64,000 nucleotides of DNA from a virus. The stretch is from IMG/VR virus record IMGVR_UViG_3300044712_000991, positions 32,001-96,000 of that record; one strand, 5' to 3'. Below the pieces are notes generated by a model that worked only from the letters and a program-made list of their open reading frames with translations, was not told where the DNA came from and searched no databases. A program made the translations under genes and the position numbers. Positions 16,329 through 33,221 of this stretch are shown here, piece by piece (positions within the stretch are counted from its first letter, which is position 1; every line of letters begins with the position of its first letter).

Positions 16329-17177
16329 CTACCTCCGAATGTCAACGCTACAGCGCCCCATAGAGAGGAACCTGTTGACTTTCCACTTCACATCGCACGC
16401 ATTGCACTCCCCGAACACAGCGCATGGGCGATACTCACTCGTGAGTTGAAGGTCGGGGTCTACAATGGATGCCACGGGGTTCTCCGCACAGTACAGATCG
16501 CGGTGACAACGGTAGATGAGCCCCTCGGGTCCTATGAGAAGTTCGGTGGTCTTGCATGTTACAGACTCCAGTTTCCCACTCAGAGCCTCGGGATACTTGT
16601 AGAACCCAAACAACTGACCCTCATGGGTGCCCAAGAAGTCCTTAATGAAGAAGTACACCTGGGCTTTGCGTGCGAGTTCACTCATCTCGATATTGGCGGA
16701 CATGTTCAGCGGGTGACTGATACCGAAGACACCGATGCTGAACCCCGCATCCTGCAAAATCTGGACTTTCCTGATGGTCGCCTGTGCATCCATCTCCGTA
16801 GGATGATAACTCACACGAATGGCCTTGTATGCTGGGTGCACCATCGAACTGAACCTCGCGGGGGACACCCTGCGAATGAAGGTCTCCGTATCGAACTGGC
16901 AGTTGGTCAGCAAATCGACTCCTATCGAGGGATCAAGGAGATCGAGGAGGTCGTAGAAGTCCTTGCGTACTGTGGGCTCACCCCCACCGATGGTCAACGG
17001 GACGGTACCGAAATCTATACGGTTCAGTCCCTCCGCCAAACGTGCTGCGGGCATCTCCCGCCTCCCCCTGCGGAGAGCCCCGAAGTCATTCATGCAGTAC
17101 TCACATGTGAGATTGCACCGGAGCGATGCGTAGAGCTCCGCGTAGTTAACATCGGGTGGTAGGGTTAGTTTACCCAT
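16329..17177 (-). CDS. Radical SAM enzyme with Cys-rich C-terminal (twitch-like) extension
   Basis: CNLTCEYC CX3CX2C motif, IGGGEPT, C-terminal C...C...CAVFGECNAC; start MGKLTL at 17177. Confidence 0.9.
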   Translation of the reverse strand: MGKLTLPPDVNYAELYASLRCNLTCEYCMNDFGALRRGRREMPAARLAEGLNRIDFGTVPLTIGGGEPTVRKDFYDLLDLLDPSIGVDLLTNCQFDTETFIRRVSPARFSSMVHPAYKAIRVSYHPTEMDAQATIRKVQILQDAGFSIGVFGISHPLNMSANIEMSELARKAQVYFFIKDFLGTHEGQLFGFYKYPEALSGKLESVTCKTTELLIGPEGLIYRCHRDLYCAENPVASIVDPDLQLTSEYRPCAVFGECNACDVKWKVNRFLSMGRCSVDIRR

Positions 17178-18909
17178 GAAGGTACTCCCGTATTTCTTGA
17201 ATCTGCTGTTCGGAGAACTCGGGAGATGCGTACTCCAAGGACTTGCCGAACACGAGTTTGGGGACAATCTTTTGCCCCTTGCCTATACCCACGGAGGTCA
17301 CGCACGCCCCCGACTCTCCAAGTGCACGGTCCACACCACCACGGATATCCGACCGCGACACAATACAATGTACGGCGATGCCGTACGCCTTAGCGACTAG
17401 CAGTTCGTCTCCGAACGGACCATCCACCGCCACGTGATGCCCCGCAAGCCACGTATCCTGTGTTTGCCGAATCATCCCGTAGCCAGCATTGTTCAGAACG
17501 AAGACCTTGATGTTGGTCTTCGCTAGAAGTGCTAGTTCTTGAATATTCATCTGAAAACTACCATCCCCGATAATGCAGATTACCTGCTTATCGGGATTGG
17601 CGTAGTAGGCACCGATGCTCGCCGGAAGAGCGTACCCCATGGGGCTGTTATTGAACGCGGTGAACAACCGCTGTCCCACTGTGACTCGCCAGCCCTGCAT
17701 CGTCCACACGACTGTACACCCCGCATCCGTCACTATCACCGCATCTCTCTTAGCAGCATCCGAAAGGAACTGCATGAACACATACGGATTGACATCCGTC
17801 TCGTGATGATAGTCCTTTGGGCAAATGGGAAGAAGGGAACGCAGTTGTCTCGCCTTGGTTGCCCACGCCGAGAAGTCGCAAACGGTGTCCTTCATGTACA
17901 CCACAAACATGTGGATGGGCGCACGAACAGTGATATCCACATGGTCGGCAATACGCTCCAACTCCGCTTCATCGATATCCACAACGACCTTCTTGGCCTT
18001 CGTAGCAAACGTCGAGAGTTTTGCCCCCACCTCGTGTGTATCTAGGCGTGTGCCAAGACAGATAAGGAGGTCTGCCTCTTGGATAACAAAGTTGGTGGCT
18101 CTCTGTGCGGTGACTCCGAAGTCTCGGAGGTTCAACGGATCAGCATCATCCATGATGTCCAGGGCACCCCATGTGAGTGCCACGGGCATATTCCACTTGC
18201 GTGCAAGCTCGATTACCTCCTGCTCACTGTTGGACAACCTTGCCCCCGCACCCACCACGAGCACCGGCCGCTTCGCCTCACTCAATAGTTCCTGGACTTT
18301 GGCGATTTTTTCGCCCACCGCATCCTCCGACAACTCGGACATCAAGATGCTCATATGATCTGGCTGGAATATTACATCCTCCATCTCCTGCCTCTGAACA
18401 TCATCACAGATGTCGATAAGGACTGGACCTCTGCGACCACTCCAAAGTTCCGTAAGAGCCGCTTCGAACGTTGGTACAACCTCCTCCACTCGCGATATAC
18501 GCCACGCACGCTTCACAACGGGTGTGAAGATACTCACCACATCCGTCTCCTGGAACCCAACCTGCCGCACGCTGTTGTATCGCAGTTGCTCCGCAGGCAC
18601 CTGCCCGGAGATGATGAGTACTGGAATGGAATCAAACCACGAACAGGCAGTACCCGTAAGGAGATTGGTCGCCCCAGGACCCGAGGTCACTACGACCACC
18701 CCGCACTTGTGCTCCGCTATGTTCAACCGAGCATACGCATCGGCCATCATGGCCGCGCCCTGCTCATGATTGGGTGTTACGAGAGCAAGCCCCTCGGTCT
18801 TAGCGATAGAGTCGAAGATGTTCGTGATGGCACCCCCGGTGATACCAAACACGGTGTCCGTCCATTTCTGGAGGTTACGGGCAATACAGTCGCTGACCTT
18901 TACTTTCAT
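17170..18909 (-). CDS. ThDP-dependent enzyme, acetolactate synthase-like (YerE-like carboligase candidate)
   Basis: HEQGAAMMADAY, TSGPGATN, GQV, GFQE, GTRLD, ThDP-binding GDGSFQMNIQEL...VLNNAGYGMI. Confidence 0.93.
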   Translation of the reverse strand: MKVKVSDCIARNLQKWTDTVFGITGGAITNIFDSIAKTEGLALVTPNHEQGAAMMADAYARLNIAEHKCGVVVVTSGPGATNLLTGTACSWFDSIPVLIISGQVPAEQLRYNSVRQVGFQETDVVSIFTPVVKRAWRISRVEEVVPTFEAALTELWSGRRGPVLIDICDDVQRQEMEDVIFQPDHMSILMSELSEDAVGEKIAKVQELLSEAKRPVLVVGAGARLSNSEQEVIELARKWNMPVALTWGALDIMDDADPLNLRDFGVTAQRATNFVIQEADLLICLGTRLDTHEVGAKLSTFATKAKKVVVDIDEAELERIADHVDITVRAPIHMFVVYMKDTVCDFSAWATKARQLRSLLPICPKDYHHETDVNPYVFMQFLSDAAKRDAVIVTDAGCTVVWTMQGWRVTVGQRLFTAFNNSPMGYALPASIGAYYANPDKQVICIIGDGSFQMNIQELALLAKTNIKVFVLNNAGYGMIRQTQDTWLAGHHVAVDGPFGDELLVAKAYGIAVHCIVSRSDIRGGVDRALGESGACVTSVGIGKGQKIVPKLVFGKSLEYASPEFSEQQIQEIREYLHG

Positions 18910-18919
18910 ACTTCCCCTG

Positions 18920-19537
18920 TCAAAGTGCGTTGATGATAGCCACTGTAGCCGGAGTGACCTCAAAGAACACTACCGCCGATCCACCGACATGCAGGATGTC
19001 CATTTGCTTACTCAGCCCGTCGATAAATACATCCACTCCTGGATTGGAGTTAAGGTAGTCATGGTAGGCTATGATCTTCGCACCCAACTTCACCGCGAGT
19101 TTTGTGTCGATCTTGACGTTCTCAGCGTCATGATTACCATCAATGAACACCATGTCGTACACCTCGTTACCGCGAGGCACATACTCAGAGGTATCTGCCT
19201 TCTCTAGCACGATGGGCGTGATGCCCACAAAGTACTTCCCATACCTATCGAGATTGGAATGATATCCGGCCCCTCCACCAACAAAGTCCTGGCAGATGTC
19301 TATGGACTTCTGTCTGTGCAGGTCGGAGTTCAACCAGAAACACAGTGATCCGTAACCCTCCCACGTACCTATCTCACACAGGGAGTGCACATTGTGGTTG
19401 TGGATAATCCACAGGATGGCCGCATAGTCGTTCACGATGTTCGGAAAATGCGGACCGTAGGTGTTCACAAAGCGGGTCAAAAAGTGCACGACCTGCATGC
19501 GTTCAGATTCATAACAGGGAGCTACTGGGCGTATCAT
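18920..19537 (-). CDS. Class I SAM-dependent methyltransferase (Methyltransf_24-like)
   Basis: CEIGTWEG, YDMVFIDGNHD, IIAYHDY. Confidence 0.88.
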   Translation of the reverse strand: MIRPVAPCYESERMQVVHFLTRFVNTYGPHFPNIVNDYAAILWIIHNHNVHSLCEIGTWEGYGSLCFWLNSDLHRQKSIDICQDFVGGGAGYHSNLDRYGKYFVGITPIVLEKADTSEYVPRGNEVYDMVFIDGNHDAENVKIDTKLAVKLGAKIIAYHDYLNSNPGVDVFIDGLSKQMDILHVGGSAVVFFEVTPATVAIINAL

Positions 19538-20640
19538 ATGAAGTTCACTCCCTTCGGCTTGTTCTTGTATGTGTAGGCGAACTCGTTACATTTGTCCTGC
19601 CGACAACAGCCGTGACACATGGTGTGCACATCGAACTCCTTGTCCATGAAGCGCACGATGTCCCAGTAGCGGTCGCTCGACCACATCTCTTCCAGGCTCT
19701 GCTCGTGGAGGTTACCAAAACGGAAGTCCTTCCACTGGGGCTTGCCGCCGAACATGTACCCACAAGGGTACCAGTCACCATTGCCACTCACTTCGGAGAT
19801 GAACGGTATGGAGGAGCAGTTCTCGTACGGCTTCTCCCCCTTCTGCTGAATAAGCGTCCACTTGGGGATGATCTGTGTCTGCTTGGTGCTCAGCGCCTCC
19901 ACCCGTTTGAGCAAATCCACTATCTCCGGCCGGTCGTAGTCGCTCATCTCGAAGTGCACCATCCCACTCTCCCCACCATCGGGCAGAGAACACTGTTTGA
20001 TGACATGGTAGTCCACTCCGACCTCGACCGCGAACTTCGCGAGCGCTTCCAGCTCGTTCGGCATGTCACCCGATGGTACGAACACCGTCTGCAACCCGAT
20101 GTCACAGGTCAGACCGTGCTTGTGCTTGTACTCGACCATCCTACGGATGTTGTCCAAGACCATATTCCGCGCCTTCTCGGACACCCGATGAATGGAGGCG
20201 TATCCCTCGACCGTGAAGGCCGAGATGTTGAAGCGCATCCACTCACAGCTCTCTAGCACGGTCGCAATCCGCTCGTCGGTGTTCAGCAGAATGCCCGAGG
20301 TGGAGATGCTCAGACTCAGCCCTTCCTTCTTACCCACTTGAAGAGCCTCATACAACGCAGGGTTCAGCGTGGGGTCGCCATCTCCGATGAACGCAAGACT
20401 CCTAAGACCTATCCGAGCGCCGGAGCGTACGAGATTCTCCACGAGCGCATCGCGGGACATCACCTCGCCCGTCATGTTCTGGAAAAATCCGTAGCAATAA
20501 ATACAACGCTCGTTGCACTTCTTGGTCAGCCCCGCATCGATATGCACGGGCGGCACGCGTTCCCCCCTGTCCAACCATGCCATGACCCTATCCATGTGCC
20601 ACAGCATCTTGGTATCATCCATCCGCCGTTCTTTATCCAT
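19534..20640 (-). CDS. Radical SAM enzyme with SPASM/twitch domain
   Basis: CNERCIYC, GDGDPTLNP, C-terminal CSS...GDWYPCG...FGNLHEQSLEEMW...CHGCC...C. Confidence 0.92.
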   Translation of the reverse strand: MDKERRMDDTKMLWHMDRVMAWLDRGERVPPVHIDAGLTKKCNERCIYCYGFFQNMTGEVMSRDALVENLVRSGARIGLRSLAFIGDGDPTLNPALYEALQVGKKEGLSLSISTSGILLNTDERIATVLESCEWMRFNISAFTVEGYASIHRVSEKARNMVLDNIRRMVEYKHKHGLTCDIGLQTVFVPSGDMPNELEALAKFAVEVGVDYHVIKQCSLPDGGESGMVHFEMSDYDRPEIVDLLKRVEALSTKQTQIIPKWTLIQQKGEKPYENCSSIPFISEVSGNGDWYPCGYMFGGKPQWKDFRFGNLHEQSLEEMWSSDRYWDIVRFMDKEFDVHTMCHGCCRQDKCNEFAYTYKNKPKGVNFI

Positions 20641-21596
20641 CAAAGAGGCCTCCATATTGGGCTTGTTTTAAGTTCTTCTAGTTCCTGAAGCGTAAGAGGA
20701 TAACTGTACTCCTCGCCAGGGAACACATTAGACTTCACATCGCGTACATAGGCCTCGATGGCCAGTCGAGCGAGTGTCAACAGACCATCCTGCCGGGTAT
20801 CCCGACCAAACGCCCTCACATCCCCCACTTTGGTGACCACCGTGCGGTAGGCATCGATCACTTGCGGAACATAGCACTTGGCAAACCACGGGCGAAACGA
20901 CTGGTAGAAGCCCATCAGATCATGCATGATGACCAACTGCCCATCCACACCCGCTCCCGCCCCGATACCGTAGATGGGAATCCGCAACTGCTTGGCGATG
21001 TTCTCGGCGGGAAGTGTCGGCATAGCCTCTAGAAGGATAGAGAACGCCCCTGCTCGTTCAAGAGCAACGGCATCGGTGAGCGTGTGCTCGAAGGATGCGG
21101 CGGTCTTACCCTGAATCCTATACCCTCCGAAGGAGGCGGCACTCTGCGGGGTGAGACCGAGGTGCCCCATCACGAGAATACCCGCATCCGCAATGGCCTT
21201 CACTCGGGGGCACATCCGTACCCCACCCTCAAGTTTCACAGCATCACATCCCGCTTCCTTCACGAACCTCAGAGCGTTTCGCACAGCATCCTCATCGCTT
21301 ACCTCGTACGCCCCCTGGGGCATATCCCCGATGATGAACGTGTTGGGCGCACCCTTACGCACGGCCTTGGCGAACTGAATCATCTCATCCATCGTCACGG
21401 GATTCGTAGTCTGGTACCCCAACTGCACCATACCGCCCGAGTCCCCCACCAGGATCATATCCACACCCGCTTGCTCAGCGGTGTACGCGAACGGATAGTC
21501 GTAGGCGGTTATCCACGCCACACGCTGCCCCTTCGCCTTCATCGCCTGTAGACCCAAAAGGGTCACCTTCTTCTTCGCGCTACCATCTTCAGCCAT
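20640..21596 (-). CDS. panB: 3-methyl-2-oxobutanoate hydroxymethyltransferase (ketopantoate hydroxymethyltransferase)
   Basis: ITAYDY, ILVGDS, IGDMP, VKLEGG, MGHLGLTPQS, GIGAG, DGQLVIMHDLMG. Confidence 0.93.
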   Translation of the reverse strand: MAEDGSAKKKVTLLGLQAMKAKGQRVAWITAYDYPFAYTAEQAGVDMILVGDSGGMVQLGYQTTNPVTMDEMIQFAKAVRKGAPNTFIIGDMPQGAYEVSDEDAVRNALRFVKEAGCDAVKLEGGVRMCPRVKAIADAGILVMGHLGLTPQSAASFGGYRIQGKTAASFEHTLTDAVALERAGAFSILLEAMPTLPAENIAKQLRIPIYGIGAGAGVDGQLVIMHDLMGFYQSFRPWFAKCYVPQVIDAYRTVVTKVGDVRAFGRDTRQDGLLTLARLAIEAYVRDVKSNVFPGEEYSYPLTLQELEELKTSPIWRPL

Positions 21597-22303
21597 TATG
21601 CACGCTCCTGTTGTTTTGCTGCCTCGATCTTGTCCCACTCGGCGTGCTTGCAGGTGCTCGCCCAGTTCTCAAACGCTGCCTGACCCACGGTGAACTGCTG
21701 CTGAGTAGCCGACCACGAGCTAAACGTCTCATCGGGAGGTGTACCGAAACACGGGTGCCTATGCTCAACCACCACATCAGGTACGTACACAAGGAGTCCC
21801 GCGTGCTCATACTCCCGGAGAACATTATCCACCCAAGTATGAACAAACATTCGGGGGAAATAGTGCCCCACTGTGCGCACGAGTTTGCCCGGGATGACAC
21901 CCGCGTACGGAAGTCCCATGGGGGACAAGATGGCACTCATGCACCACCCGTTATTGCGCGAATTGCATGCCTCGATCATCTTCGCATCCCACTCGGGGGT
22001 CATCACATACTGATCGTCGTTCAAATCGGTGTAGTACGGGACATCGGGGTACGCTTCGCACGCCAAGTAGTTCAAGACTTCCACCATGTTCAGCCGTGGC
22101 CCCACAATGTGCTTCACGCGTGCAAGGACAGGCGCATAGTCCGCTATTCGGGGGTCATCCTCCGCGACGTACACTACTAGTTCGGTGCCCTCACTCTTGT
22201 TGGCCTCCACACTGTCAATCATGTCGTTGAGTTTCTCGGGGCGACCTCTAGAGGAACACATGACAAGTAGGCGAGTGCTATCAGAAAGTACGGGGATACT
22301 CAT
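21596..22303 (-). CDS. Glycosyltransferase, GT-A fold (GT2-like)
   Basis: SRGRPEKL, VYVAEDDP, DLNDD (DxD-like), HTWVD, VEHRHP. Confidence 0.75.
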   Translation of the reverse strand: MSIPVLSDSTRLLVMCSSRGRPEKLNDMIDSVEANKSEGTELVVYVAEDDPRIADYAPVLARVKHIVGPRLNMVEVLNYLACEAYPDVPYYTDLNDDQYVMTPEWDAKMIEACNSRNNGWCMSAILSPMGLPYAGVIPGKLVRTVGHYFPRMFVHTWVDNVLREYEHAGLLVYVPDVVVEHRHPCFGTPPDETFSSWSATQQQFTVGQAAFENWASTCKHAEWDKIEAAKQQERA

Positions 22304-22353
22304 TGTAGGTGCTCCTGTGGTATAGCCATGTACAAGCAGTTGGTATGAAAGGG

Positions 22354-23094
22354 CTACCGTGTGACAACCGCAGTGTTGGTAGAAGGAAGAACAAGCCTCT
22401 CTAGGTCGGGGTCTACCCTAGCAATCGCGGCCTCAGGTGATCTCGTGGCTTGCACAAACCTGTCCACGGGTCCTGGACCTCCCCCCTCGCTCTCCATATC
22501 CGCCACACAGTACTGTCGGCGTGCACCGCGCTCCAACAACGCTGCATCCGAACTGATACGGCAAGAGTTCTCGAACAGTACGACCTCCGAAACCACAGGA
22601 ATACCCGAATGCTGTCCTTGCAGATGCACATGGTACTTCCGAGTCTCATCATACCGCAGACCACCCTTGAACAGCCGCATACTCGGACCAATCGGCCACT
22701 TGAAGAAGTGGTACGCATCCTTCACGGTGAACAGGAGCATCATGTCCCAGTAGTTGCTGATAACGAACACCCCGGTCTTCAGCCAGTCCGCGAAGTTGGT
22801 AGTCCACGTCATGTCCGCATCGGGTACAAAGATGTAGTCCCCCGTACACTGGTCGAGACCGTAGTTCATCTGCGCTCTCGTGAAGTCCCATGGGCGTTCG
22901 AACACACGCAACGGCACACGATCCTTATACTCCTCGACCACAGCCAACGTGTTATCCTTGCTCCCACCATCAACCAGCACGACCTCTTTCAAATCGGGGA
23001 AGTTCTGTGCCAGGTGAGCGCAGGATTCAAGATACCACCGGATGGGCTCTTCCTCATCCTGCATGATGGTCATGATGGACACTGATTGTCCCAT
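22354..23094 (-). CDS. Glycosyltransferase family 2
   Basis: VSIMTIMQDEE, VVLVDGGSKDNT, NYGLDQCTGDYIFVPDAD, VHLQ. Confidence 0.9.
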   Translation of the reverse strand: MGQSVSIMTIMQDEEEPIRWYLESCAHLAQNFPDLKEVVLVDGGSKDNTLAVVEEYKDRVPLRVFERPWDFTRAQMNYGLDQCTGDYIFVPDADMTWTTNFADWLKTGVFVISNYWDMMLLFTVKDAYHFFKWPIGPSMRLFKGGLRYDETRKYHVHLQGQHSGIPVVSEVVLFENSCRISSDAALLERGARRQYCVADMESEGGGPGPVDRFVQATRSPEAAIARVDPDLERLVLPSTNTAVVTR

Positions 23095-23475: not shown

Positions 23476-24252
23476 CTAGACTTTCTGAAGCGTGGCCCAA
23501 TATCGCTCAGTGCCCACTCCTTCTTCCTCAACCACTACGAATGGTGTGCCTTTGATGGCCTCTCGAATCAGTTCGGGACCCAAACGGCACCCATGCCAAG
23601 TGTTACCCTCTGACGCGCCCCCAATGCCCGTGTAGATATCACGCCCCTGAAGAACGAACACGCCACCAAGTTTCAACACCCGGCAGACATCCCGTACATA
23701 GGACTTGATGACCTCTTCGGAGGATATGTGTTGGAATACGATGTACTCGAAGGCGAAATCCACAGAATCCACAGGGATTGCATCACCCAAGGACATGCCA
23801 TCAATCTCCAAGAACGACCCATACCTGACCTTCCCATCCGTACCGTGCTCCACACGATAGTCAGTCAAGCGTTTCATCGCGATATCGATGAGTTTGCCCG
23901 AAATATCCACACCGTAGTAGCGAACGGCATAGTCTGCGATAAACAGGGACATCCTACCCATACCACAACCGATCTCAAGGATGGTGTCGTGGGGGTAGTC
24001 TTTCAGTCGGGGAACGAACTCGCGCAGCGTATCTCCCAACCCTGAGTCCCGAAGACTTTTCTCGGATGCGTTGTGTTCTGCGCACACGAATAGGCTTGGG
24101 TCTTTGGTCGCACGCAAATCCCAGTCGGACTTGGCGGTCTTCACGAACGTCGTGGGGTCTACCTGGGGCATGTACTCGAAGTTGTTGCAGTGGATAGCCC
24201 GAGCATACTGCACGGGGGACACGGCGCTGCGTTGTTCTTCTGACAGACTCAT
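23476..24252 (-). CDS. Class I SAM-dependent methyltransferase
   Basis: ILEIGCGMGRM motif I, YYGVDISG, VDFAF...VFQHI, RVLKLGGVFV. Confidence 0.92.
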   Translation of the reverse strand: MSLSEEQRSAVSPVQYARAIHCNNFEYMPQVDPTTFVKTAKSDWDLRATKDPSLFVCAEHNASEKSLRDSGLGDTLREFVPRLKDYPHDTILEIGCGMGRMSLFIADYAVRYYGVDISGKLIDIAMKRLTDYRVEHGTDGKVRYGSFLEIDGMSLGDAIPVDSVDFAFEYIVFQHISSEEVIKSYVRDVCRVLKLGGVFVLQGRDIYTGIGGASEGNTWHGCRLGPELIREAIKGTPFVVVEEEGVGTERYWATLQKV

Positions 24253-25601: not shown

Positions 25602-25997
25602 TCATCCTTTCAGTGCTTGACCTGCTTCTTGTTTTTTCTGTATGGCGCGTTCAACATCGGCACGCACATTACGCTCCTCGTGCGAGTATCCAGCGACCTT
25701 TTTCTTGAGTTGCTCATTCTTCTCACGAATCTTCTTCCCCGTGGGGACTCCATTGAGTTCCCCATCAATCTTCACATTGTATGTATCATCCTTTTGAGGC
25801 ACCGGGATGAACTTCCGTGGATCATCGAGAAGTTTCCACGCCACATCCTGGGGATGCCTCTCGATCTGGGAGGTCTCGACGTTCACTATGGGGATAAGAT
25901 ACACATTATTCTGCACTAATGCAAAACCACATCCGGGGCAGAGTTGGAGATGGTCTTCCTCAGTGGAAGTACCACATTTTTTGCAAAATCTGTTCAT
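25602..25997 (-). CDS. Zinc-ribbon protein
   Basis: N-terminal CKKC...CPGC; coiled-coil-like C-terminus. Confidence 0.7.
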   Translation of the reverse strand: MNRFCKKCGTSTEEDHLQLCPGCGFALVQNNVYLIPIVNVETSQIERHPQDVAWKLLDDPRKFIPVPQKDDTYNVKIDGELNGVPTGKKIREKNEQLKKKVAGYSHEERNVRADVERAIQKKQEAGQALKG

Positions 25998-26950
25998 TCT
26001 GCCTCCTGATACTTCTCCAACGCAAGTCGCAGTTGCTCCATCGTACGCGACTTTGAGTAGAACTTGGCTGTCCTGAGAGCGCTCTGCCGCATCCGGCGCA
26101 CATCATCCGCATGCATGTCGTTCACAAAGCCCAACATGACCGCCAAGGTCGTATAGTCGCCATCTGTGGGGGCAACCATGCAGTTGTCGCCATGGAACAT
26201 GAAATCCGAACCCCCGCCACCCGTGAAACCCACCACGATACACCCGCATGCCATGGCCTCCAACGGCGGTAGCCCGAAACCCTCAGGGTACGAATGCGCC
26301 ACGAACACCCTAGAGGCTCGCAGATTGTCCGCGAACTCCTGCTCAGGGCAGTCACGGAAGACTTCTATCTCTGTTCTACCATTGGAGTCTATCCATCGGG
26401 GCGCTTCATCTGCACGCATAATCTTCGCACGCGCTCCCTGACCATCCTTACGCTCTTGGAGCATGATAGCCGTACGTCGAGCCTCCCATGGATCGAGCGC
26501 GTCATATGTGGCTCCCTCGGGCAGATGAAACACCCGAGAATCGATGAAAGGGCTGACCATGAACAGCGTGTGCTCCCGAAACTGCGGGAGAGCGTTACGA
26601 TTGAACTCACTGCTCATCCACACATCCAACCCCCTGTAGGGATTGCTCCGGTTGATGAACACCTCACCCTGGACGTACATCACTTTGTTGAAGAACGCAG
26701 ACCGGAAGAGGGGCTCAGGGTCTTCCCAACCGACAATGAGGTCTCTCTTCTTGTCCGCGATGTTCAACATGTGCTGCCATGTAATCTCGGGCGCAGCGTG
26801 CGCAAACCACGAGATGTGGTGCTCCTGCCCATCGGCGTACACGATGTACGCCTCGTGCCCCAACTCGCGTTCAAGCTCTACGAGTTGATACACGACTTTT
26901 ATGCCACCAGAAGGAATAGGGTTGAATGGTAGACAATGAAAGATTTTCAT
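25994..26950 (-). CDS. Glycosyltransferase, GT-B fold (GT4-like)
   Basis: SGGIKVVYQL N-terminus; EGFGLPPLEAMACGC signature. Confidence 0.9.
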   Translation of the reverse strand: MKIFHCLPFNPIPSGGIKVVYQLVELERELGHEAYIVYADGQEHHISWFAHAAPEITWQHMLNIADKKRDLIVGWEDPEPLFRSAFFNKVMYVQGEVFINRSNPYRGLDVWMSSEFNRNALPQFREHTLFMVSPFIDSRVFHLPEGATYDALDPWEARRTAIMLQERKDGQGARAKIMRADEAPRWIDSNGRTEIEVFRDCPEQEFADNLRASRVFVAHSYPEGFGLPPLEAMACGCIVVGFTGGGGSDFMFHGDNCMVAPTDGDYTTLAVMLGFVNDMHADDVRRMRQSALRTAKFYSKSRTMEQLRLALEKYQEAE

Positions 26951-26973
26951 ACTGCGCCTGTGTCGTTGAATTG

Positions 26974-28926
26974 TTAGTCGAACATCACATCCGCTAGAAT
27001 TTTGCCCACGGGGACGATATCCGCTCTACGGGCTCGCTGTAGAGCAATCTGTCCCTTCTGCTTGACAACCTCGGGGTGCTCAAACGCGTAGCGCATGAGG
27101 CTCCGCAGGTGATCGAGTCTCGGCGTGGCCCACACAGACCCGATGTAGTTCCTGAAATACGGAAGCACTTGCAACGGCATCGGTTCAAGATCGAACTCTA
27201 TCGGGAAACCCGAACTTTCGTGAAGAAAGTCCGTCATACCGCTGTAGTTGGTCGCTATCGACGGTATCCCGCACGCACCGGCCTCCACGATGCCGTTCCC
27301 GAAGCCCTCACACCGCGAGGGCATCACAAAACAGTCGTGTGCCGTGTACATCGAGGGCACCACAGTCGGATGGAAGGAGTTGGATGTCACATAGATGGGC
27401 GCATGGGGAAGTTCCTGCCCGCCGAGGATGTTCGTTATCCATGTCTTGAGGTCCATCTGGGCCTGCTGAAGGATGTAGAACAGACTCAACGAGTGCAAGG
27501 AGAGGAACACATCCTCGGAAGGCTTGAATTCGAGGATGAACGCCTTGATAACGGCCTCCAGGTTCTTCCGCTCTCCGTACGCGCTCATCGCGAGGAATCC
27601 GAACTTCCTGCGGTTCTCGATTTCTAGTGGTTTTGCCTGGGGATTGAACAGCGTGGTATCCACGGGATTCGGAACAACCGTGATGTCCGTGCGAACACCA
27701 CGCTCTAGCAAGATGTTCTTGCAGAACGTACTGTTGACGACCACCCTGTCCACATGGTTCAACTGCTCGATCCACCGTTGAGGAGGATTGGTGCCCTCGA
27801 ATGTGGTGTGCGCCACCCGGCGCTTTCCTGGGGGCATCAAGTACTGATGGTCACCCTCCGCAGAACGAAGAATCGCCCTGTTCCAGTAGTCGTGGGGCTT
27901 CAGGATCATCTCCTTGATTTCCCAGTCATCCACGGGCATCGGTTGGTGATACTCCTCGGGAGCAATGGCAACATCCACCCCATTGCGCTTGAGACCCTTG
28001 GCGAGGTTCCTCAGTACGATGGAGAACGACCAGTCCCCGTAGATTTTACCACTGATGAGCGCCTGTCGGTCACTCGTCGGCTTGTATGTGAGAATGTCCG
28101 CATCGTGCTTGGTGTAGAACTTAATCTGATTGAACCTCGACAGACCACTCACCGCCTCGGGGCTCCCGAATGTGGCGTTCGCGGTCTTGTTCTCGTAGTG
28201 CACGGCTCGCGCTGAAGGCTGATAGTACGTCTTGAACCCCCATGTACGCGCCATCGTGCAGTAATCAACCTCCTCGAAGTACGCGGGGTTGAACCGCTCA
28301 TCCATACAAGGCACGACCTTCAAGCACCTGTTCGTGATGTAGAACAGAGCGCCCGTAACATACTCCTGTTCGGTGATTGCGGTCTCGATGCACTCCGTGT
28401 TCGGCACTCCGGCCATCTTGTGCTGCCCCCACCCGAAGACCCCGATGAACGCCCCCGCGTGCTGAATGCGACCATCAGGAAACATCAACCGACCGCCAAT
28501 GACGCCCGCATCGGGTGTCGTCTCGGAAGCCTTAACAAGTTCCTCAATACACTCCGGGAAGAGTTCCATGTCGTTGTTGGTGATGAGAATGTCGGCCTCA
28601 GGGAAGAGGGTTTTCGCAACCGAGATGCCATCGTTGCATCCACCCGCATACCCACGATTGGTTGGGTTCTGCACGACAAACCGAAATTTGATGGCATCGT
28701 ACGCCACATTCAACTTCTTGCCCCCGCAGTCCATATCCTCTTGGTACACCACACCCTTCTTATCAAGCCAAGATGTCTCCAACCACGCGGCTGTATCGTC
28801 CGTGGAGGCATTGTTGACCACCACGACCGCAAAGTCCTTCAAGGACTGCCCTTCCAGGCTCCGGAGGAACATCTTGGTGTAGAAAAGTTGATTCAAAACA
28901 GGTGTGACAACGACGACCTTGACCAT
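26974..28926 (-). CDS. Bifunctional GT2 (N-terminal) plus GT4 (C-terminal) glycosyltransferase
   Basis: VVVVNNASTD, NRGYAGGCN, ITNND, YFEEVDYC; then VMPSRCEGFGNGIVEAGACG. Confidence 0.93.
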   Translation of the reverse strand: MVKVVVVTPVLNQLFYTKMFLRSLEGQSLKDFAVVVVNNASTDDTAAWLETSWLDKKGVVYQEDMDCGGKKLNVAYDAIKFRFVVQNPTNRGYAGGCNDGISVAKTLFPEADILITNNDMELFPECIEELVKASETTPDAGVIGGRLMFPDGRIQHAGAFIGVFGWGQHKMAGVPNTECIETAITEQEYVTGALFYITNRCLKVVPCMDERFNPAYFEEVDYCTMARTWGFKTYYQPSARAVHYENKTANATFGSPEAVSGLSRFNQIKFYTKHDADILTYKPTSDRQALISGKIYGDWSFSIVLRNLAKGLKRNGVDVAIAPEEYHQPMPVDDWEIKEMILKPHDYWNRAILRSAEGDHQYLMPPGKRRVAHTTFEGTNPPQRWIEQLNHVDRVVVNSTFCKNILLERGVRTDITVVPNPVDTTLFNPQAKPLEIENRRKFGFLAMSAYGERKNLEAVIKAFILEFKPSEDVFLSLHSLSLFYILQQAQMDLKTWITNILGGQELPHAPIYVTSNSFHPTVVPSMYTAHDCFVMPSRCEGFGNGIVEAGACGIPSIATNYSGMTDFLHESSGFPIEFDLEPMPLQVLPYFRNYIGSVWATPRLDHLRSLMRYAFEHPEVVKQKGQIALQRARRADIVPVGKILADVMFD

Positions 28927-28929
28927 CGA

Positions 28930-29403
28930 TCAGCCTTCAGGGGTTGTTTCTGGGGGAAACCATGAGTTGGGGATGATACCGTGCGTGGAATCCAAATCAT
29001 ACATAGGGCGCTCTGCTCCCGAGACCTCCCTCTTCCACTGGAACATGGCGTTATCGAGTTTCACGGGTTTCGCGAGTTTGTACGATCGAAGCGTGTTGTC
29101 CCATACCGTGTCAACATCCGTACCTGCAAACGGCAGCCCAGGTAAAAAATTCGGCGCTGAGTAGTACCATCCGTTAGCAAGCACGAGGCAGGTAAATATA
29201 CGACCACCCACGCACTCCTGCACGACCTCCATGATGTGTGGAGCAACACTACATGTAACGGGTATTCTCTGCGTATGGTGCCGGAAACTGCGAAGATGCG
29301 CCACGTACCCATTGGGGAACTCCACGGCGTACGTGTAGGACATCACCTCCCCCGCTCCGTGCAGATAATCCTCGGCTTCCTTTGTTAGCCCAATGAAGTC
29401 CAT
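28930..29403 (-). CDS. Hypothetical protein
   Basis: Start MDFIG overlaps the upstream stop; no motif recognised. Confidence 0.65.
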   Translation of the reverse strand: MDFIGLTKEAEDYLHGAGEVMSYTYAVEFPNGYVAHLRSFRHHTQRIPVTCSVAPHIMEVVQECVGGRIFTCLVLANGWYYSAPNFLPGLPFAGTDVDTVWDNTLRSYKLAKPVKLDNAMFQWKREVSGAERPMYDLDSTHGIIPNSWFPPETTPEG

Positions 29404-30620
29404 TAGACCATCACCCGACCGAGGGTCGCGATGTTCGTCCCTGTGGGTCGTAGCGCGGTCTCCACGGTCTCCACGAGCATCTTGTCCGCCCGCTCCAGCG
29501 ACCATTCGGCGCGGATGACCTCTCCGAACTTCAGCGCCCTCTCGGTCGCCACGGGATACCGCTCGTAGCACCGCTTGAGCCTACTCTTCGCGTGCTCGTA
29601 GTTCGGATTCGCCCACGACTGCCCAGGACCGAGGAGTTCGGGAGCCCACATCGACTGCGGTACGGGTCCCATGTCGTAGTCCACGACCGCCGTGAGATGG
29701 GGGTTCACGTAGTCCATGTGCCCCGAGTAGCCCGTGACGATGATGGGGAGATTGCACGCAGCAGCCTCCGCTAGTGGGCGGAAATACCCCTCACCATGCG
29801 TGAGACTCACGAAGGCCTTGATCTGCGGGTGATGGTACAACCCCGAGAGCTCCTCGTTGGACATCGCGCCGTGTACGAAGTGCACTCTGCCCTTGGCGGC
29901 CGGTCCTAGAAGCTCGGACATGCGCTCCAGGAGAGCATAGCGGTCGGGAGAGGACTGGTTGTGCATGTACGTCTTGACCACGATGCCCACCTCGGGGTTG
30001 TCAATGAACGCATCGAGGACGGTCATGATGGTCGCAGGGATGTTCTTCCTGTCCATGCTGACCTCACCCTGCAACCACTGCCCCACGGTCAAAAAGTTGA
30101 ACTTCGTGGGGAACTCCAACTGCGAGATGGATGGTATTGCAGACACGGGGTCCACATCGTTGAAGACCTTGGTGTCCACCCCCTCGGGCACGACATACAC
30201 GGGGACTTTCACCCCGCAAGTAATGAGGCGATCCCGCACGAACTTCGAGGGCACGATGATGGCGGTCATCTGGTTGCAGTACTCAGCCCACTTCTGTGGA
30301 TACTGCTCCACCTCCAGACCGGCCGTGATCCCGATATTCGCCACAGCGGACACCCTGCGAAACTCGTGGGGGACGCCCACCTGTATCCAGGCGAACTCCA
30401 CGCCCTCTGCGATACGGTTGTTGCACATGAACACCAGTGCATCCGCCACATCCTTCTCGGGCGTACAGGTCGAACTGCCTCCCCACCCCACGGGTACCAC
30501 GGAGATGTTGAAGTTTCCGGAGTTGAACAGGGCCATGACGATGTCCCTGGCATGCGCTCCGTATCCGCTCAGGCTGAACACGGGGGCTTGGATGATGAGA
30601 TTCTTCCGATCGGTCATCAT
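29403..30620 (-). CDS. Glycosyltransferase family 4
   Basis: SGYGAHARDI, IIVPS, VPEGVD, THGEGYFRPLAEAAACN. Confidence 0.9.
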   Translation of the reverse strand: MMTDRKNLIIQAPVFSLSGYGAHARDIVMALFNSGNFNISVVPVGWGGSSTCTPEKDVADALVFMCNNRIAEGVEFAWIQVGVPHEFRRVSAVANIGITAGLEVEQYPQKWAEYCNQMTAIIVPSKFVRDRLITCGVKVPVYVVPEGVDTKVFNDVDPVSAIPSISQLEFPTKFNFLTVGQWLQGEVSMDRKNIPATIMTVLDAFIDNPEVGIVVKTYMHNQSSPDRYALLERMSELLGPAAKGRVHFVHGAMSNEELSGLYHHPQIKAFVSLTHGEGYFRPLAEAAACNLPIIVTGYSGHMDYVNPHLTAVVDYDMGPVPQSMWAPELLGPGQSWANPNYEHAKSRLKRCYERYPVATERALKFGEVIRAEWSLERADKMLVETVETALRPTGTNIATLGRVMV

Positions 30621-30940
30621 AACGGGGATACTCCTATAGCTTGGTATGGTTGAATAGAAATGTCACACTCTTCGATGTAATTCAGTACGAGGGGAGTCCG
30701 CGATGACCACGGGTCTCCCGGGCGCACGGTTTTTTCATGCTCGGTGCCACCAAAACGCACCTTGCGGGTGGCGTGGGTCAGATGGATACCAGTCCACGCC
30801 ATACCCTGGTTGCCATCCTCATAGAGGATAGGCTCGACCCCATCCGACAAAATCAGACCGATGAACCCCGATGAACAAGCAGCAATGGCATACTTGCGTG
30901 GTGGTCTCACCACGGTCTCCACATCCTTCTGGATGCTCAT
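30617..30940 (-). CDS. Hypothetical protein
   Basis: 107 aa ORF coupled on both sides. Confidence 0.65.
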   Translation of the reverse strand: MSIQKDVETVVRPPRKYAIAACSSGFIGLILSDGVEPILYEDGNQGMAWTGIHLTHATRKVRFGGTEHEKTVRPGDPWSSRTPLVLNYIEECDISIQPYQAIGVSPL

Positions 30941-31290
30941 CAGTTTCGTCCCTTCATACGCTGTGCGACCTTCGCGTAACTCTTTCCTTCCCCATCGGGA
31001 TGCACGAGCGTCACGACGTTCGTGGGCTTACCGAGAGCGAAGGCCATGCCGAGATCGAAATGGCTTCCCTTGCTCTCCACATCCCATATGACATGTACCT
31101 CATCCGCCGCCCTCATGGAATCCAAGTGCTCCACGCAGATGTTGTACCCCGTTGGATCGCCCTGATAGACATCGCGTACCGGGTTGTGCACCGAGTGCCC
31201 CTCGGCCTCTAGAGAGGCGACATAGAGGTCAATCATGCGCTGTACATCGGGCGCAACCCCCCGTACTGGACATATCAGATGAATACGCAT
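30940..31290 (-). CDS. Nucleoside 2-deoxyribosyltransferase / N-glycosidase superfamily protein
   Basis: IHLICP, VHNP, AADEV, GSHFDLGMAFALGKP (Asp at the usual catalytic Glu position). Confidence 0.75.
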   Translation of the reverse strand: MRIHLICPVRGVAPDVQRMIDLYVASLEAEGHSVHNPVRDVYQGDPTGYNICVEHLDSMRAADEVHVIWDVESKGSHFDLGMAFALGKPTNVVTLVHPDGEGKSYAKVAQRMKGRN

Positions 31291-31297
31291 TCGTGCC

Positions 31298-31468
31298 TCA
31301 TGTAGTTTGTTTTGCGAACATCGAGCGCCACAGCCGTTTTACCGCCCGCGCAACACCCCAACCTTCTAAGCACAGCAAGAGCATGAGGACTCCCCCAAAT
31401 ACTAACGCTATCCAGAAGAGAAACCTCCATTCATCTCCCGCCTTGGTGTTGCCCAGGTCTTCCATCAT
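31298..31468 (-). CDS. Small single-pass membrane protein
   Basis: 57 aa with hydrophobic FLFWIALVFGGVLMLLLCL segment; follows an AGGAG-type RBS. Confidence 0.5.
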   Translation of the reverse strand: MMEDLGNTKAGDEWRFLFWIALVFGGVLMLLLCLEGWGVARAVKRLWRSMFAKQTT

Positions 31469-31470
31469 AC

Positions 31471-32706
31471 TCACTCCTGTGTGTGAACAACCCACGACTT
31501 GAACGTAGAGGGCTTGGCGAGCACGGAGGTCAGCACCTGCTTCCACGCGGCAATCGTGTTGTCCGTGTGGTAGTTCTTGATGATGTGCTCCCGCCCCTGG
31601 AGACCCAGTCCACGCAGTTTGCCCGCCGCCTTCAGCGTGTACGCCTCCTCCATCGCCGCCTGGATGTCCTCTACGGATGTCCAGTCCTGGTTGATGTACG
31701 GATTGCCCACAACACCGAACAGCGTACGCACGGTGGGCTGAAGAAGAATGCCATTCACCGCACCATCATCGCACACCATCTGCTCCGTCAGACCTCCCGT
31801 GGAGACCGCGATGTTCGGTGTACCGGCCAGTAGGCTTTCCATACACGAGAGACCAAAGCCCTCGTTGTATGCCACGTTCAGCGTCACATCCGCAAGGTTG
31901 TAGAACCTATTCAGATCGCTCACGGAGACCTTGCTGCTGTTGATGATAACGGGGGCCGCGTTGCGCTCCACCTGCTTCATGATCATCCCGAGGTCGAACC
32001 CCTCGGCATCGACTGCGGCGGTGTTCATGATGAGCACCGAATCGGGATGCGTCTGCCAGAAGCGCCGGAAGGCGACCACGATGTCCGCCGTACGCTTGCG
32101 GAAGGTGTTGCGGTTGTTGTAGAACAGCACGAACTCGGGCTTCGTTGGGAGTTTGCCGAACACATTGCTCCTGATGGCCTCCACCTCCTCGGGCTCCAAC
32201 GGATAGAACTCCGTGGGGTCACCTCCGTGGGGCGCGAACATCACGTCCACACCGTTGTCCTTCATCAGATCGTAGGAGAACTTGGAGAGCATCACCACCT
32301 GGTCACAGGCCGCGTACCAAACCTTGTTGTACGCCGGGAACGGGCGATTGTCCCATGTGTGGTAGAACACGAGCTTGGTATGCTTCCTGATCTCATCGTC
32401 CATGATGAACGCATAGGTGAAGAACCTCGGGTCGGAGAAGAGCACCGTTATCTCGGGCTTCTCCTGACCGATGACTGCCCGGAGGAGCGAGGGGTTGCCA
32501 TACCCATCCGCCGTGGGATAGACCTTGATACCCTCGAACATCACGGGGCGTGGGTCCTGAGGGCGAATACTTCCGGCGATGGTCACAATCTCGTACTCGC
32601 CCGACTTGAGCAAGCCCTTCATGAGCATGTACGCCTGAATACCGACCCCTGTCTTCTCGCGGATATCATCGGTCACGAACAGTATCTTGGTTCTCTTCAT
32701 ACTCAC
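31471..32706 (-). CDS. Glycosyltransferase family 4
   Basis: KILFVTD...TGVG, LFSDPR, YNEGFGLSCMESLLAG. Confidence 0.92.
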   Translation of the reverse strand: MSMKRTKILFVTDDIREKTGVGIQAYMLMKGLLKSGEYEIVTIAGSIRPQDPRPVMFEGIKVYPTADGYGNPSLLRAVIGQEKPEITVLFSDPRFFTYAFIMDDEIRKHTKLVFYHTWDNRPFPAYNKVWYAACDQVVMLSKFSYDLMKDNGVDVMFAPHGGDPTEFYPLEPEEVEAIRSNVFGKLPTKPEFVLFYNNRNTFRKRTADIVVAFRRFWQTHPDSVLIMNTAAVDAEGFDLGMIMKQVERNAAPVIINSSKVSVSDLNRFYNLADVTLNVAYNEGFGLSCMESLLAGTPNIAVSTGGLTEQMVCDDGAVNGILLQPTVRTLFGVVGNPYINQDWTSVEDIQAAMEEAYTLKAAGKLRGLGLQGREHIIKNYHTDNTIAAWKQVLTSVLAKPSTFKSWVVHTQE

Positions 32707-33221
32707 CTCGTTAGTTCTGTTGGTACATCCTGAATGGTGTAATGATGCGGATTGCGGTCGGCATACAACGCCTTCAACCGAGCGACATCGGGAGTGAACT
32801 TCTGGACTGCCTCCTGGTAGCCACCCAGGAACATACGATCATCTTCCAGTTTTCCAGCAACAGTCGCATCGATGAGGATGGCAATACAGGCTATGGCGTG
32901 ACCAAGATGTGGTACGCCCGAATCTGGTGCAACCTCTTCACCCTCGAACCACGCACCCATGTGTCTCCACAGGGCATCGTAGTAGATCGAGGCACGCACC
33001 CCGACCGCACGCCAGTTGCACCGCCCGTACTTCAACGCCCCATCGAGGAGCCCGAGAGTACCGTAGATGGTCGCGGTGTTTGGCCACAAGTGCAGCGGAA
33101 GTTTGTTGCTCCCCACGATGTCTTTGGGGTTTGATGGTTTGCTGTCCGAAGGAAGACTGGTGTCAGCTACCCCTGGGTGTGACAGTCCCTCCCAGGGGCG
33201 CGAATCATTGGCAGAGGCCAT
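32703..33221 (-). CDS. dATP/dGTP diphosphohydrolase-like (DUF5664)
   Basis: KLPLHLWP, GALKYGRCNWR, YYDALWRH, DSGVPHLGHA. Confidence 0.85.
   Translation of the reverse strand: MASANDSRPWEGLSHPGVADTSLPSDSKPSNPKDIVGSNKLPLHLWPNTATIYGTLGLLDGALKYGRCNWRAVGVRASIYYDALWRHMGAWFEGEEVAPDSGVPHLGHAIACIAILIDATVAGKLEDDRMFLGGYQEAVQKFTPDVARLKALYADRNPHHYTIQDVPTELTR

Follow-up and report, generated by a model that had tools for sequence, protein, structure and literature searches.

What does a tailed phage build with eight glycosyltransferase domains? The question is raised by an island of genes at 16329-33221 in a 64,000-nucleotide stretch (the window), which comprises bases 32001-96000 of the viral contig recorded in IMG/VR as IMGVR_UViG_3300044712_000991. 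All coordinates are window positions unless marked as genome positions. The source contig is a single piece of 194,278 bp with a CheckV completeness of 100%. Among sequencing runs, the stretch is present only in the probable source sample, a rhizosphere metagenome, and no RNA run is listed. The island is best explained as a module for glycan assembly that belongs to an uncultured lineage of large phages with contractile tails. A fuller account has the glycan put together in the cytoplasm on an acceptor that the phage itself encodes, virion proteins being the probable choice, and has one of its sugars C-branched in this phage; to this we would give roughly an even chance.

The glycosyltransferase core and its slot

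The gene inventory was drawn up from Pfam, NCBIfam and PHROG scans of the window open reading frames (ORFs). An original prediction, made from the letters alone, had proposed seven glycosyltransferase (GT) genes with eight domains, four of GT2 type and four of GT4 type, and the profile scans confirmed this count. The two methyltransferases, two radical S-adenosylmethionine (SAM) enzymes (rSAM), thiamine diphosphate (ThDP) enzyme and PanB of the same proposal are likewise all present where it had placed them, on the minus strand. In the direction of transcription, the island opens with a MazZ-like gene, a GT4, a 116-aa deoxyribosyltransferase-like protein, a 107-aa protein, a second GT4 and a protein of about 157 aa. 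These are followed by a GT2-GT4 fusion, a GT4, a Zn-ribbon protein, an HExxH metallopeptidase, a GT2, a methyltransferase, a 93-aa protein and another GT2. The distal end consists of a 235-aa GT2-like protein, PanB, an rSAM/SPASM enzyme, a Methyltransf_24 protein, the ThDP enzyme and a small rSAM enzyme. The genes had been described as co-oriented and mostly coupled, and indeed 12 of the 19 junctions overlap, by 1-16 nt, with gaps of more than 20 nt at only four (23, 50, 96 and 180 nt). Four starts were moved to internal Met codons, giving 282 aa for the small rSAM enzyme, 579 aa for the ThDP enzyme, 318 aa for PanB and about 157 aa for what had been listed as a 213-aa ORF. Every GT2 and GT1/GT4 Pfam match of the 194-kb genome lies within the island, the GC content of which is that of its flanks. 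Beyond it come a phage sigma-70-family factor (15622..16323, minus strand; PF04542/PF04545), which marks the downstream boundary, and then a class II-type ribonucleotide reductase (RNR).

The conserved core consists of two GT4 paralogues, the GT2-GT4 fusion, another GT4, two GT2 enzymes, a methyltransferase and the Zn-ribbon protein. The first core gene (31471..32706) encodes a GT4-type enzyme of 411 aa (PF00534, E 2e-9), and the second (29403..30620) a GT4-type enzyme of 405 aa that matches PF13439/PF00534 exactly at the cut-off. The third is the 650-aa fusion (26974..28926), with PF00535 in its N-terminal half and PF00534/PF13439 in its C-terminal half. Next stand the 318-aa GT4 (25994..26950; PF13692/PF00534) and the Zn-ribbon protein of 131 aa (25602..25997), which has four invariant or near-invariant Cys residues (alignment A4). 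A GT2 of 288 aa (24249..25115; PF00535, E 5e-7), a class I SAM methyltransferase of 258 aa (23476..24252; PF08241/PF13649) and a GT2 of 246 aa (22354..23094; PF00535, E 5e-16) complete the core. Searched as family profiles against the PDB, the 411-aa GT4 and the GT4 half of the fusion have the chlorovirus protein B736L (3oy2) as top match (E 9e-17 and 4e-14, respectively), and the 405-aa GT4 matches the same structure at E 3e-8.

How widely is this core kept? The GT core is found at 39-73% identity on about 87 contigs, none of them longer than 182 kb, and 13 of these are viral loci given by a profile scan of IMG/VR. The full-length homologues of the fusion, likewise about 87, are 33-71% identical to it. 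ORFs were called in 20 loci and clustered, which left 15 distinct loci for comparison. All 15 have both GT4 paralogues as well as the fusion and the Zn-ribbon protein; the 288-aa GT2 is found in 12 of these loci, and the 318-aa GT4 and the 246-aa GT2 in 11 each. The 258-aa methyltransferase is kept in L001, L004, L005, L012, L016 and L025. A common gene order runs through L001-L005 and L012-L023. Members of the Zn-ribbon family measure about 95-145 aa and combine an N-terminal four-Cys ribbon with an invariant basic C-terminal helix (EKNExLKKK..GY..E..N.R); its role could be regulatory or that of a scaffold, and it might even serve as the acceptor that primes synthesis.

The slot that the core occupies is fixed as well, with tail-fibre genes on one side and the sigma factor and RNR genes on the other. 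Genes for baseplate, fibre, sigma factor and RNR border the loci of the fusion homologues, and the succession of island, sigma factor and RNR recurs at least in L012, L017, L019, L022, L009 and L025. On the fibre side stands a gene for a tail-fibre-like protein of 574 aa (38196..39920, minus strand), which follows a 1366-aa tail fibre (PHROG 33450). This gene, which comes after the baseplate-J and long tail-fibre genes, lies within eight genes upstream of the core in 11 of the 15 loci and is directly adjacent in four. The 574-aa protein itself has no PHROG, Pfam or PDB match, and weak Atlas leads point to receptor-binding proteins. Judged by this comparison of sequences, the island is a feature of the phage lineage and not a captured cellular locus. 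The contrary picture, an O-antigen locus taken from a cell together with its exporters and without conservation among phages, fails on both counts.

Two relatives carry LAGLIDADG inteins of about 395 aa inside GT genes (L001:7510-9951 and L003:6310-8784). The interrupted GT4 paralogue is not the same in the two relatives. The point of insertion within the EX7E nucleotide-sugar motif is equivalent, following GEG(W)G in one case and NEGFGL in the other, and the Cys1 and HN|C junctions are canonical. One of the interrupted genes is a relative of the 411-aa GT4; the other, in L001, is a relative of the 405-aa GT4. Seating in catalytic motifs is the pattern of inteins in highly conserved enzymes, and to our knowledge inteins within glycosyltransferases are unusual. 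Since the inteins sit exactly in the EX7E catalytic motif, they argue for functional constraint on the GT4 paralogues, and, lodged as they are in two paralogues, they show these enzymes to rank with the best-conserved genes of the lineage.

The phages concerned stand far from cultured ones. Among 50,697 phage records, a megablast search with the island had no match, and tblastn of the fusion against the same records found only single GTs of Streptomyces phages at 23-26% identity, in neighbourhoods that were uninformative. The DNA polymerase is at most 27% identical to that of any cultured phage. The genome had been called that of a myovirus, and signs of a contractile tail make this plausible, namely Baseplate_J, an eCIS-core (extracellular contractile injection system) protein and, at 59126-60682, a weak match to a sheath C-terminal domain.

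The distal sugar cassette

At its distal end the island holds a sugar-tailoring cassette that is exchangeable and differs between relatives. In this phage its first gene encodes the GT2-like protein of 235 aa (21596..22303), for which PHROG 14945 'glycosyltransferase' was matched at E 1e-19. The protein has no Pfam match itself, and its homologue at L017:16911-17657 passes PF00535; it is on these two matches that the count of seven GT genes and eight domains stands. There follow a PanB-type 2-oxoacid hydroxymethyltransferase of 318 aa (20640..21596; TIGR00222), the rSAM/SPASM enzyme of 373 aa (19534..20655; PF04055 and PF13186), a Methyltransf_24 protein of 205 aa that resembles CmcI and sugar O-methyltransferases (18920..19537; PF13578), and a ThDP carboligase of 579 aa from the acetolactate synthase (ALS) superfamily (17170..18909; all three ThDP Pfam domains). 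The last gene, translationally coupled to that of the ThDP enzyme, encodes the small rSAM enzyme of 282 aa (16329..17177; PF04055). All six lie on the minus strand. At the same slot the closest relatives (fusion 63-71% identical) have a B12-rSAM enzyme, Methyltransf_24, paralogues of nucleoside diphosphate (NDP)-sugar 4,6-dehydratases/epimerases, an FdtA-like isomerase and an RmlD-like reductase, and a split transketolase/E1-type ThDP pair is added in relatives further removed. The Pfam-annotated relatives L001-L005, L009 and L025 all have a Methyltransf_24 gene in the variable distal part of the island.

A sister contig, L025, shares the cassette of GT2-like protein, PanB, rSAM/SPASM, Methyltransf_24, ThDP and rSAM enzymes. 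The identities between the two phages are unequal (L025:4742-5848): 97% for the rSAM/SPASM enzyme, 88% for PanB and 80% for the ThDP enzyme, which points to uneven constraint or to recent exchange within the cassette. The trio of rSAM/SPASM, ThDP and small rSAM genes is found in four other phage contigs, L009, L010, L024 and L025, the first three of which have a different architecture. In each of the four the small rSAM gene comes directly after the ThDP gene. The companions of the trio vary: PanB in L009 and L025, an aminotransferase with RmlB/C/D-like genes in L010, and a B12-rSAM enzyme in L024. The GT2-like gene precedes PanB also in L009 and L025; in L024, without PanB, a 232-aa ORF of similar size stands before the rSAM/SPASM gene. 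An IMG/VR scan with the ThDP enzyme as a single protein returned no relative. Homologues at 42-44% identity are single polypeptides with the rSAM/SPASM part on the C-terminus of the ThDP enzyme, and the one such fusion examined lies in a polysaccharide cluster on a 222-kb contig, beside Wzx flippase, DegT and GT4 genes. Because the trio recurs, because the two enzymes are fused elsewhere and because the loci are sugar loci (the context of the ThDP genes in L009, L010, L024, L025 and the fusion locus is always sugar genes), the rSAM/SPASM and ThDP enzymes would be expected to work together, on sugars.

What kind of carboligase is the ThDP enzyme? It falls below the cut-off of all of the more than 20 ALS models, the best score being 357 bits against a cut-off of 538. 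Against the PDB it scores 256 bits with ALS I and 240 bits with JanthE (8rph), a characterised YerE-like ketone-accepting ligase. Residues were read from an alignment to E. coli ALS I and Arabidopsis acetohydroxyacid synthase. The RFDDR of ALS reads RLDTH here, so that the acceptor-binding Arg is replaced by His, and the position of Arabidopsis W574 is occupied by Thr. The G[TS]RLDTH sequence is kept in all four phage ThDP homologues examined, and both the cofactor motif GDG...NN and HEQ, with the catalytic Glu, are intact. By its residues the enzyme is YerE-like and not a true acetolactate synthase, with the reservation that no residues diagnostic of ketone acceptance are known for YerE-like enzymes (PMC12247030).

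PanB passes two equivalog cut-offs (TIGR00222, 276.5 against 207.55 bits; NF001452, 308.7 against 272 bits), and its translation shows DS, GD, KLEG and LEA motifs, which we take to be active-site motifs. It is 67% identical to PanB-like genes in glycan loci of Falkowbacteria and Marinimicrobia, and its context is one of rSAM, ThDP and GT genes in three phages and of glycan loci in two cellular genomes. None of panC, panD and panE stands among the annotated neighbours of PanB, no direct search for them having been made. In the cellular loci (L035:6172-8987, Falkowbacteria; L036:6172-8996, Marinimicrobia) the PanB-like gene, of 328-331 aa, comes directly after a gene for a 600-aa ALS-like ThDP protein. 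More than 100 PanB-like proteins of this kind (about 315 aa, 64-88% identity) were seen in metagenomes, which suggests a PanB subfamily with a role in a sugar pathway.

For the radical SAM enzymes, sequence searches against the PDB were essentially blank. The AlphaFold2 (AF2) model of the rSAM/SPASM enzyme has a pLDDT of 83, and its top structural match is DesII (Foldseek E 5e-16; VIA Z 22.5 over 338 residues), followed by BlsE at Z 21.0 and by SkfB, SuiB and PqqE at Z 19.7-20.6. DesII is the radical SAM TDP-sugar lyase/dehydrogenase of desosamine biosynthesis, which turns a nucleotide sugar into a keto-sugar. DesII and BlsE both act on sugar nucleotides, and the modelled likeness to them should be taken as a lead and no more, since SkfB and SuiB, which mature ribosomally synthesised and post-translationally modified peptides (RiPPs), score just 1-2 Z units lower. 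DesII itself differs in that the identity is only 14-18% and in that no DesI-type aminotransferase is encoded in this genome. The small rSAM enzyme has extra conserved Cys residues (alignment A6).

A possible route to a C-branched sugar can be put together from these parts. The DesII-like rSAM/SPASM enzyme would generate a keto-sugar, from an NDP-sugar or from a sugar already in the glycan, without a 4,6-dehydratase; because no 4,6-dehydratase of the PF01370 family is encoded in the genome, the keto-sugar would have to come either from the host or from this enzyme. PanB would hydroxymethylate a 2-oxo acid to a gamma-hydroxy-2-oxo acid, which the YerE-like ThDP enzyme would decarboxylate, joining the acyl unit to the keto-sugar. 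The second rSAM enzyme and Methyltransf_24 would complete the sugar, and the adjacent 235-aa GT2-like protein would transfer it. The model for the central steps is the YerE type of enzyme, which couples a decarboxylated 2-oxo acid to a keto-sugar. In the erwiniose pathway a neighbouring aldolase, ErwI, makes the gamma-hydroxy-2-oxo acid, and the YerE-like ErwE, which prefers such donors, adds it to a 4-keto sugar (PMC9306805). The phage cassette shares with the yersiniose, erwiniose and caryophyllose pathways an ALS-superfamily ThDP ligase that lacks the ALS acceptor residues, a neighbouring donor-forming enzyme (the ErwI aldolase there and, by prediction, PanB here) and a glycan gene cluster with a dedicated GT. 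It differs from them in having no CDP/NDP-sugar 4,6-dehydratase or 3-dehydrase and no identified YerF-type reductase, in its pair of rSAM enzymes, of which one forms a single polypeptide with the ThDP enzyme in metagenomic homologues, and in that PanB is a methylene-tetrahydrofolate hydroxymethyltransferase and not a pyruvate aldolase. A literature search gave no paper describing a nucleotide-sugar pathway that joins rSAM and ThDP enzymes.

The acceptor of the glycan

Then, on what is the glycan built? The genome is informative in what it leaves out. PF00483, PF01370, PF01041 and PF01467 have no match in the complete genome, which thus contains no NDP-sugar nucleotidyltransferase, no short-chain dehydrogenase/reductase (SDR)-type epimerase or dehydratase, no DegT enzyme and no cytidylyltransferase; the nucleotide sugars must therefore come from the host. 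The genome likewise has no ORF with four or more hydrophobic segments and so no Wzx, Wzy, ABC permease, phosphoglycosyltransferase or Gtr component. No export or initiation gene appears in the Pfam listings of L001-L005, L009, L010, L024 and L025 either. The original prediction had noted the lack of nucleotide-sugar synthases and exporters for the window, and it holds for the whole genome.

Could the soluble GTs act instead on undecaprenyl-phosphate-linked intermediates of the host, using the host's own initiating transferase and flippase? The O-antigen, capsule or teichoic acid would then be altered, for superinfection exclusion or to free the progeny from debris. GT2 and GT4 enzymes of these types normally use lipid-linked acceptors, the cassette enzymes have their closest cellular homologues in surface-polysaccharide loci, and the core adjoins fibre genes much as the seroconversion genes of temperate phages often stand beside tail-spike genes. 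Such remodelling nevertheless seems unlikely to us. It is countered by the complete genome, which has no membrane protein, Gtr component, flippase or phosphoglycosyltransferase, and by the window, in which no integrase or lysogeny module was seen; eight GT domains are far above the known seroconversion systems, and a seven-gene core kept at 39-73% identity in phages of many habitats would need one and the same host acceptor and exporter everywhere. DNA as the acceptor, an oligosaccharide on a modified phage base that blocks restriction and CRISPR nucleases, has the neighbourhood in its favour: the island lies here among RNR, MazZ-like, deoxyribosyltransferase-like and replication initiator genes. 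Two C5-cytosine methyltransferases are, besides, encoded elsewhere in the genome. Phage DNA GTs, moreover, derive from enzymes of lipopolysaccharide and teichoic-acid type and add up to trisaccharides (bioRxiv 10.1101/2023.12.21.572611; PMC13326640), and like the island they combine soluble GTs with host nucleotide sugars and glycans that vary between related phages (T4 glucosyl-5-hydroxymethylcytosine (5hmC), RB69/DLP3 arabinosyl-5-hydroxycytosine (5hoC), and systems of methyltransferase, TET and GT). The known routes, however, all need a hydroxylated base. Hydroxylated pyrimidines (5hmC, 5-hydroxymethyluracil and 5hoC) are made by a thymidylate-synthase homologue (PMC13326640) or, alternatively, by a methyltransferase with a TET-type dioxygenase (bioRxiv 10.1101/2023.12.21.572611). 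Thymidylate synthase (PF00303) was found neither in the complete genome nor in five related records, two of them complete, in a search whose control was positive in 10 of 14 genomes. There was no Tet_JBP match, in a search without a positive control, and no match to the 2-oxoglutarate (2OG)-oxygenase family PF13640. The two C5-cytosine methyltransferase genes (genome 154677-156095 and 160351-161061) lie about 90 kb away from the island in the early region of small genes, among neighbours that have no Pfam domain and of which none is oxygenase-like, and are probably anti-restriction genes unrelated to it. Since neither a thymidylate-synthase homologue nor, in the search without a positive control, TET was found, the base-hydroxylating enzyme that defines these systems being absent here and in the relatives, DNA glycosylation by known routes is disfavoured. 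The nucleotide-pool genes are, besides, not conserved alongside the GT core, and eight GT domains with C-branching chemistry are without precedent on DNA, to which one to three sugars are added in the known cases (PMC13326640; bioRxiv 10.1101/2023.12.21.572611). We regard this alternative as distinctly improbable, and DNA, one of the two acceptors offered in the original prediction, is not supported as it was put there.

Two further accounts start from the cassette. In one, the rSAM/SPASM enzyme is a peptide maturase and the GTs decorate its product, so that the island yields a soluble glycoconjugate, either a glycosylated small molecule or a modified peptide. SPASM-type rSAM enzymes are typically RiPP maturases, SkfB, SuiB and PqqE lie within 2-3 Z of the top match, a metallopeptidase-domain gene sits inside the GT core, and a peptidase of the C39 bacteriocin type is encoded at 7448-8083. 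The latter gene is, however, 9 kb away in the replication module, and no precursor peptide or transporter was recognised. The rSAM/SPASM gene is fused or adjacent to that of the ThDP enzyme in sugar loci, and in relatives plain NDP-sugar enzymes replace the cassette while the GT core persists, all of which makes a soluble glycoconjugate very improbable. In the other, nothing more than auxiliary metabolism is at work: PanB and the ALS-like enzyme would raise the host's supply of pantothenate/CoA or of branched-chain amino acids and would stand beside the GTs by chance, as might be supposed from the PanB equivalog score and from the acetolactate synthases that are the top sequence matches of the ThDP enzyme. 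The ThDP enzyme is nevertheless under every ALS cut-off and lacks the Arg and Trp that bind the acceptor. The Pfam scan of the window recognised no ALS small subunit, ilvC, ilvD and panC-E not having been searched for genome-wide. The two genes are coupled to two rSAM enzymes and a methyltransferase in a set that recurs as a unit in other phages, some of which have an aminotransferase or a B12-rSAM enzyme in the place of PanB, and pairs of PanB-like and ThDP genes are found within the glycan loci of Falkowbacteria and Marinimicrobia. A chance neighbourhood of this kind we find scarcely credible.

Cytoplasmic assembly on an acceptor that is not exported is thus the best reading, because the island is a phage-lineage feature, because export and initiation genes are lacking and because methyltransferases and tailoring enzymes are present. 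The GTs would draw on host nucleotide sugars and build, in the cytoplasm and on a phage-encoded acceptor, a partly methylated hetero-oligosaccharide of roughly six to eight residues. The multi-GT core, the fusion, the methyltransferases, the clade-specific cassettes, the lack of export and the fibre-adjacent slot rank a phage protein first as that acceptor. Virion proteins, those of the tail fibres or baseplate or else of the capsid, would be the most likely choice, in keeping with chloroviruses, mimiviruses and Che8-type mycobacteriophages. Of the earlier proposal of a complex, modified glycan made in the cytoplasm on a cytoplasmic acceptor, what survives is the glycan and its site of assembly, borne out by the phage lineage, the missing export genes and the tailoring enzymes.

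A number of observations weigh against assembly on virion proteins with a branched sugar. The adjacency of the core to fibre genes may be just a module boundary; here and in the closest relatives, replication genes and the MazZ-like gene stand between the fibres and the GTs, so that the island need not be transcribed with late genes. Neither the early nor the late-like promoter motif, described below, occurs within the island. PanB may simply act on ketoisovalerate, given that it passes the equivalog cut-off, and the ThDP partners of the cellular PanB-like genes belong to a different subfamily, with 34-36% identity to the phage enzyme. No YerF-like reductase was identified. The closeness of SkfB and SuiB to DesII and BlsE in the structural comparison tells in the same direction, and the AF2 model of the small rSAM enzyme, with a pLDDT of 59, was too poor for a structure search.

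Genome setting and known systems

Four genes within the block are not glycan genes: besides the Zn-ribbon protein, these encode a MazZ-like NTP pyrophosphohydrolase, a small deoxyribosyltransferase-like protein and a PhageMetallopep protein, all on the minus strand. The MazZ-like dNTP pyrophosphohydrolase (172 aa, 32703..33221; PF18909, E 8e-22) has this place beside the core in no relatives but the closest, L001, L004 and L005, and counts as a neighbour of the core, not part of it. The nucleoside 2-deoxyribosyltransferase-like protein (116 aa, 30940..31290; PF05014 below cut-off) is a lineage-specific insert with no counterpart among the compared relatives. The HExxH 'phage metallopeptidase' domain protein (162 aa, 25112..25600; PF18894, E 7e-23) has a gene at the equivalent position only in the closer relatives L001, L004, L005 and L012. 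In the first 62 kb of the window almost all genes lie on the minus strand. At its beginning are a bacterial-type RecA (344-1432; PF00154, E 7e-127) and a DnaG-type primase that is apparently split, its zinc-ribbon and catalytic core/Toprim ORFs lying about 6 kb apart (1432-2277 and 7977-8522); the C39 cysteine peptidase domain protein of the bacteriocin-processing type (7448-8083) is found among these replication genes. Two RNA ligases are encoded at 2899-4143 and 36402-37724. One is Rnl2/PHA02142-like and on the minus strand, and the other is T4 Rnl1-like and the sole plus-strand gene between the tail module and the island.

Two kinds of promoter-like motif were seen. A family of early sigma-70-like promoters has about 22 copies genome-wide, all on the minus strand. 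Its members consist of ACTTGACTTT, a spacer of about 12 nt and TGTTGTATAWT and stand mostly in the small-gene region at genome 114-173 kb; examples are at 4300-4331 and 15549-15621 in the window, and at 86940-87048 and 96671-96712. The sigma-factor gene has an early-type promoter of its own at 15549-15621. Before the phage sigma-factor gene the motif takes a variant form (GTTGCTTTT, spacer, TGTGTATATT) that is not counted among the 22. The other motif, a CCCCCTATAAATTTGG-like sequence in three copies (window 60690-60703, genome 110135 and genome 111264), resembles the T4 late promoter TATAAATA and is found immediately upstream of three large genes, among them the sheath-like one. These copies are candidate late promoters. 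A generic promoter scan gave fewer promoter-like sites than shuffles.

How does the island compare with glycosylation systems that viruses are known to have? The closest parallel is with the giant viruses, namely the PBCV-1/NY-2A capsid and the mimivirus fibril, which likewise have many soluble GTs, multi-domain fusions and methyltransferases (PMC4691112, PMC9614988), sugar-tailoring genes that change from clade to clade and no export pathway of the host type. Among solved structures, three of the phage GT4 families have their best relative in B736L of chlorovirus NY-2A. This is a GDP-mannose-binding enzyme of the GT-B fold, for which a part in making the capsid glycan is presumed but unproven (PMC4691112). 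The likeness to B736L is remote, with profile E values of 1e-8 to 1e-17, and the present virus is a tailed phage of a bacterium without nucleotide-sugar synthesis of its own; the capsid and fibril acceptors are proven in giant viruses, whereas the acceptor here is a predicted one. In Che8-type mycobacteriophages, glycans are reported on capsid and tail-tube proteins, according to the account of Freeman et al. 2023 given in PMC12619734. These phages too encode cytoplasmic GTs and no exporters, and the genes are not needed for DNA chemistry. They have about two GT genes (PMC11256854) against seven genes with eight domains and a carbon-branching cassette here, their virion glycosylation is observed and not predicted from genes, and there is no detectable close sequence relation. 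The moraphages have four GT orthogroups among their core genes, with no function assigned (Perez-Hernandez et al. 2025; PMC12619734). They are, like the present phage, large and uncultured, and share widely a sigma factor, DNA polymerase I and the four GT orthogroups; they measure 200-307 kb with predicted Bacteroidota hosts, in contrast to the 194-kb rhizosphere phage studied here.

The original prediction had seen in the island the best candidate for an undescribed system. In part this no longer stands, as glycosylation by many virus-encoded GTs that work autonomously is known in giant viruses and, on a small scale, in mycobacteriophages; the branched-sugar cassette, judged by its genes, is probably undescribed. 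That a whole lineage of large phages glycosylates its virions in the manner of giant viruses, and that in this member an undescribed acyl-branched sugar is made by a dehydratase-independent route of rSAM, ThDP and PanB enzymes, we put forward tentatively, as a proposal more apt to fail than to hold. The cassette is in any case a candidate for new carbohydrate chemistry, in which a radical-SAM route to a keto-sugar is combined with ThDP-dependent C-branching, and it suggests a second job for a PanB-type enzyme that recurs in the glycan loci of Falkowbacteria and Marinimicrobia. If the glycan does sit on virions, environmental tailed phages would wear coats as elaborate as those of giant viruses, and these coats would differ from phage to phage through swapped sugar cassettes. 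This would bear on adsorption, on the stability of particles in soil and on the recognition of phage particles by hosts and predators.

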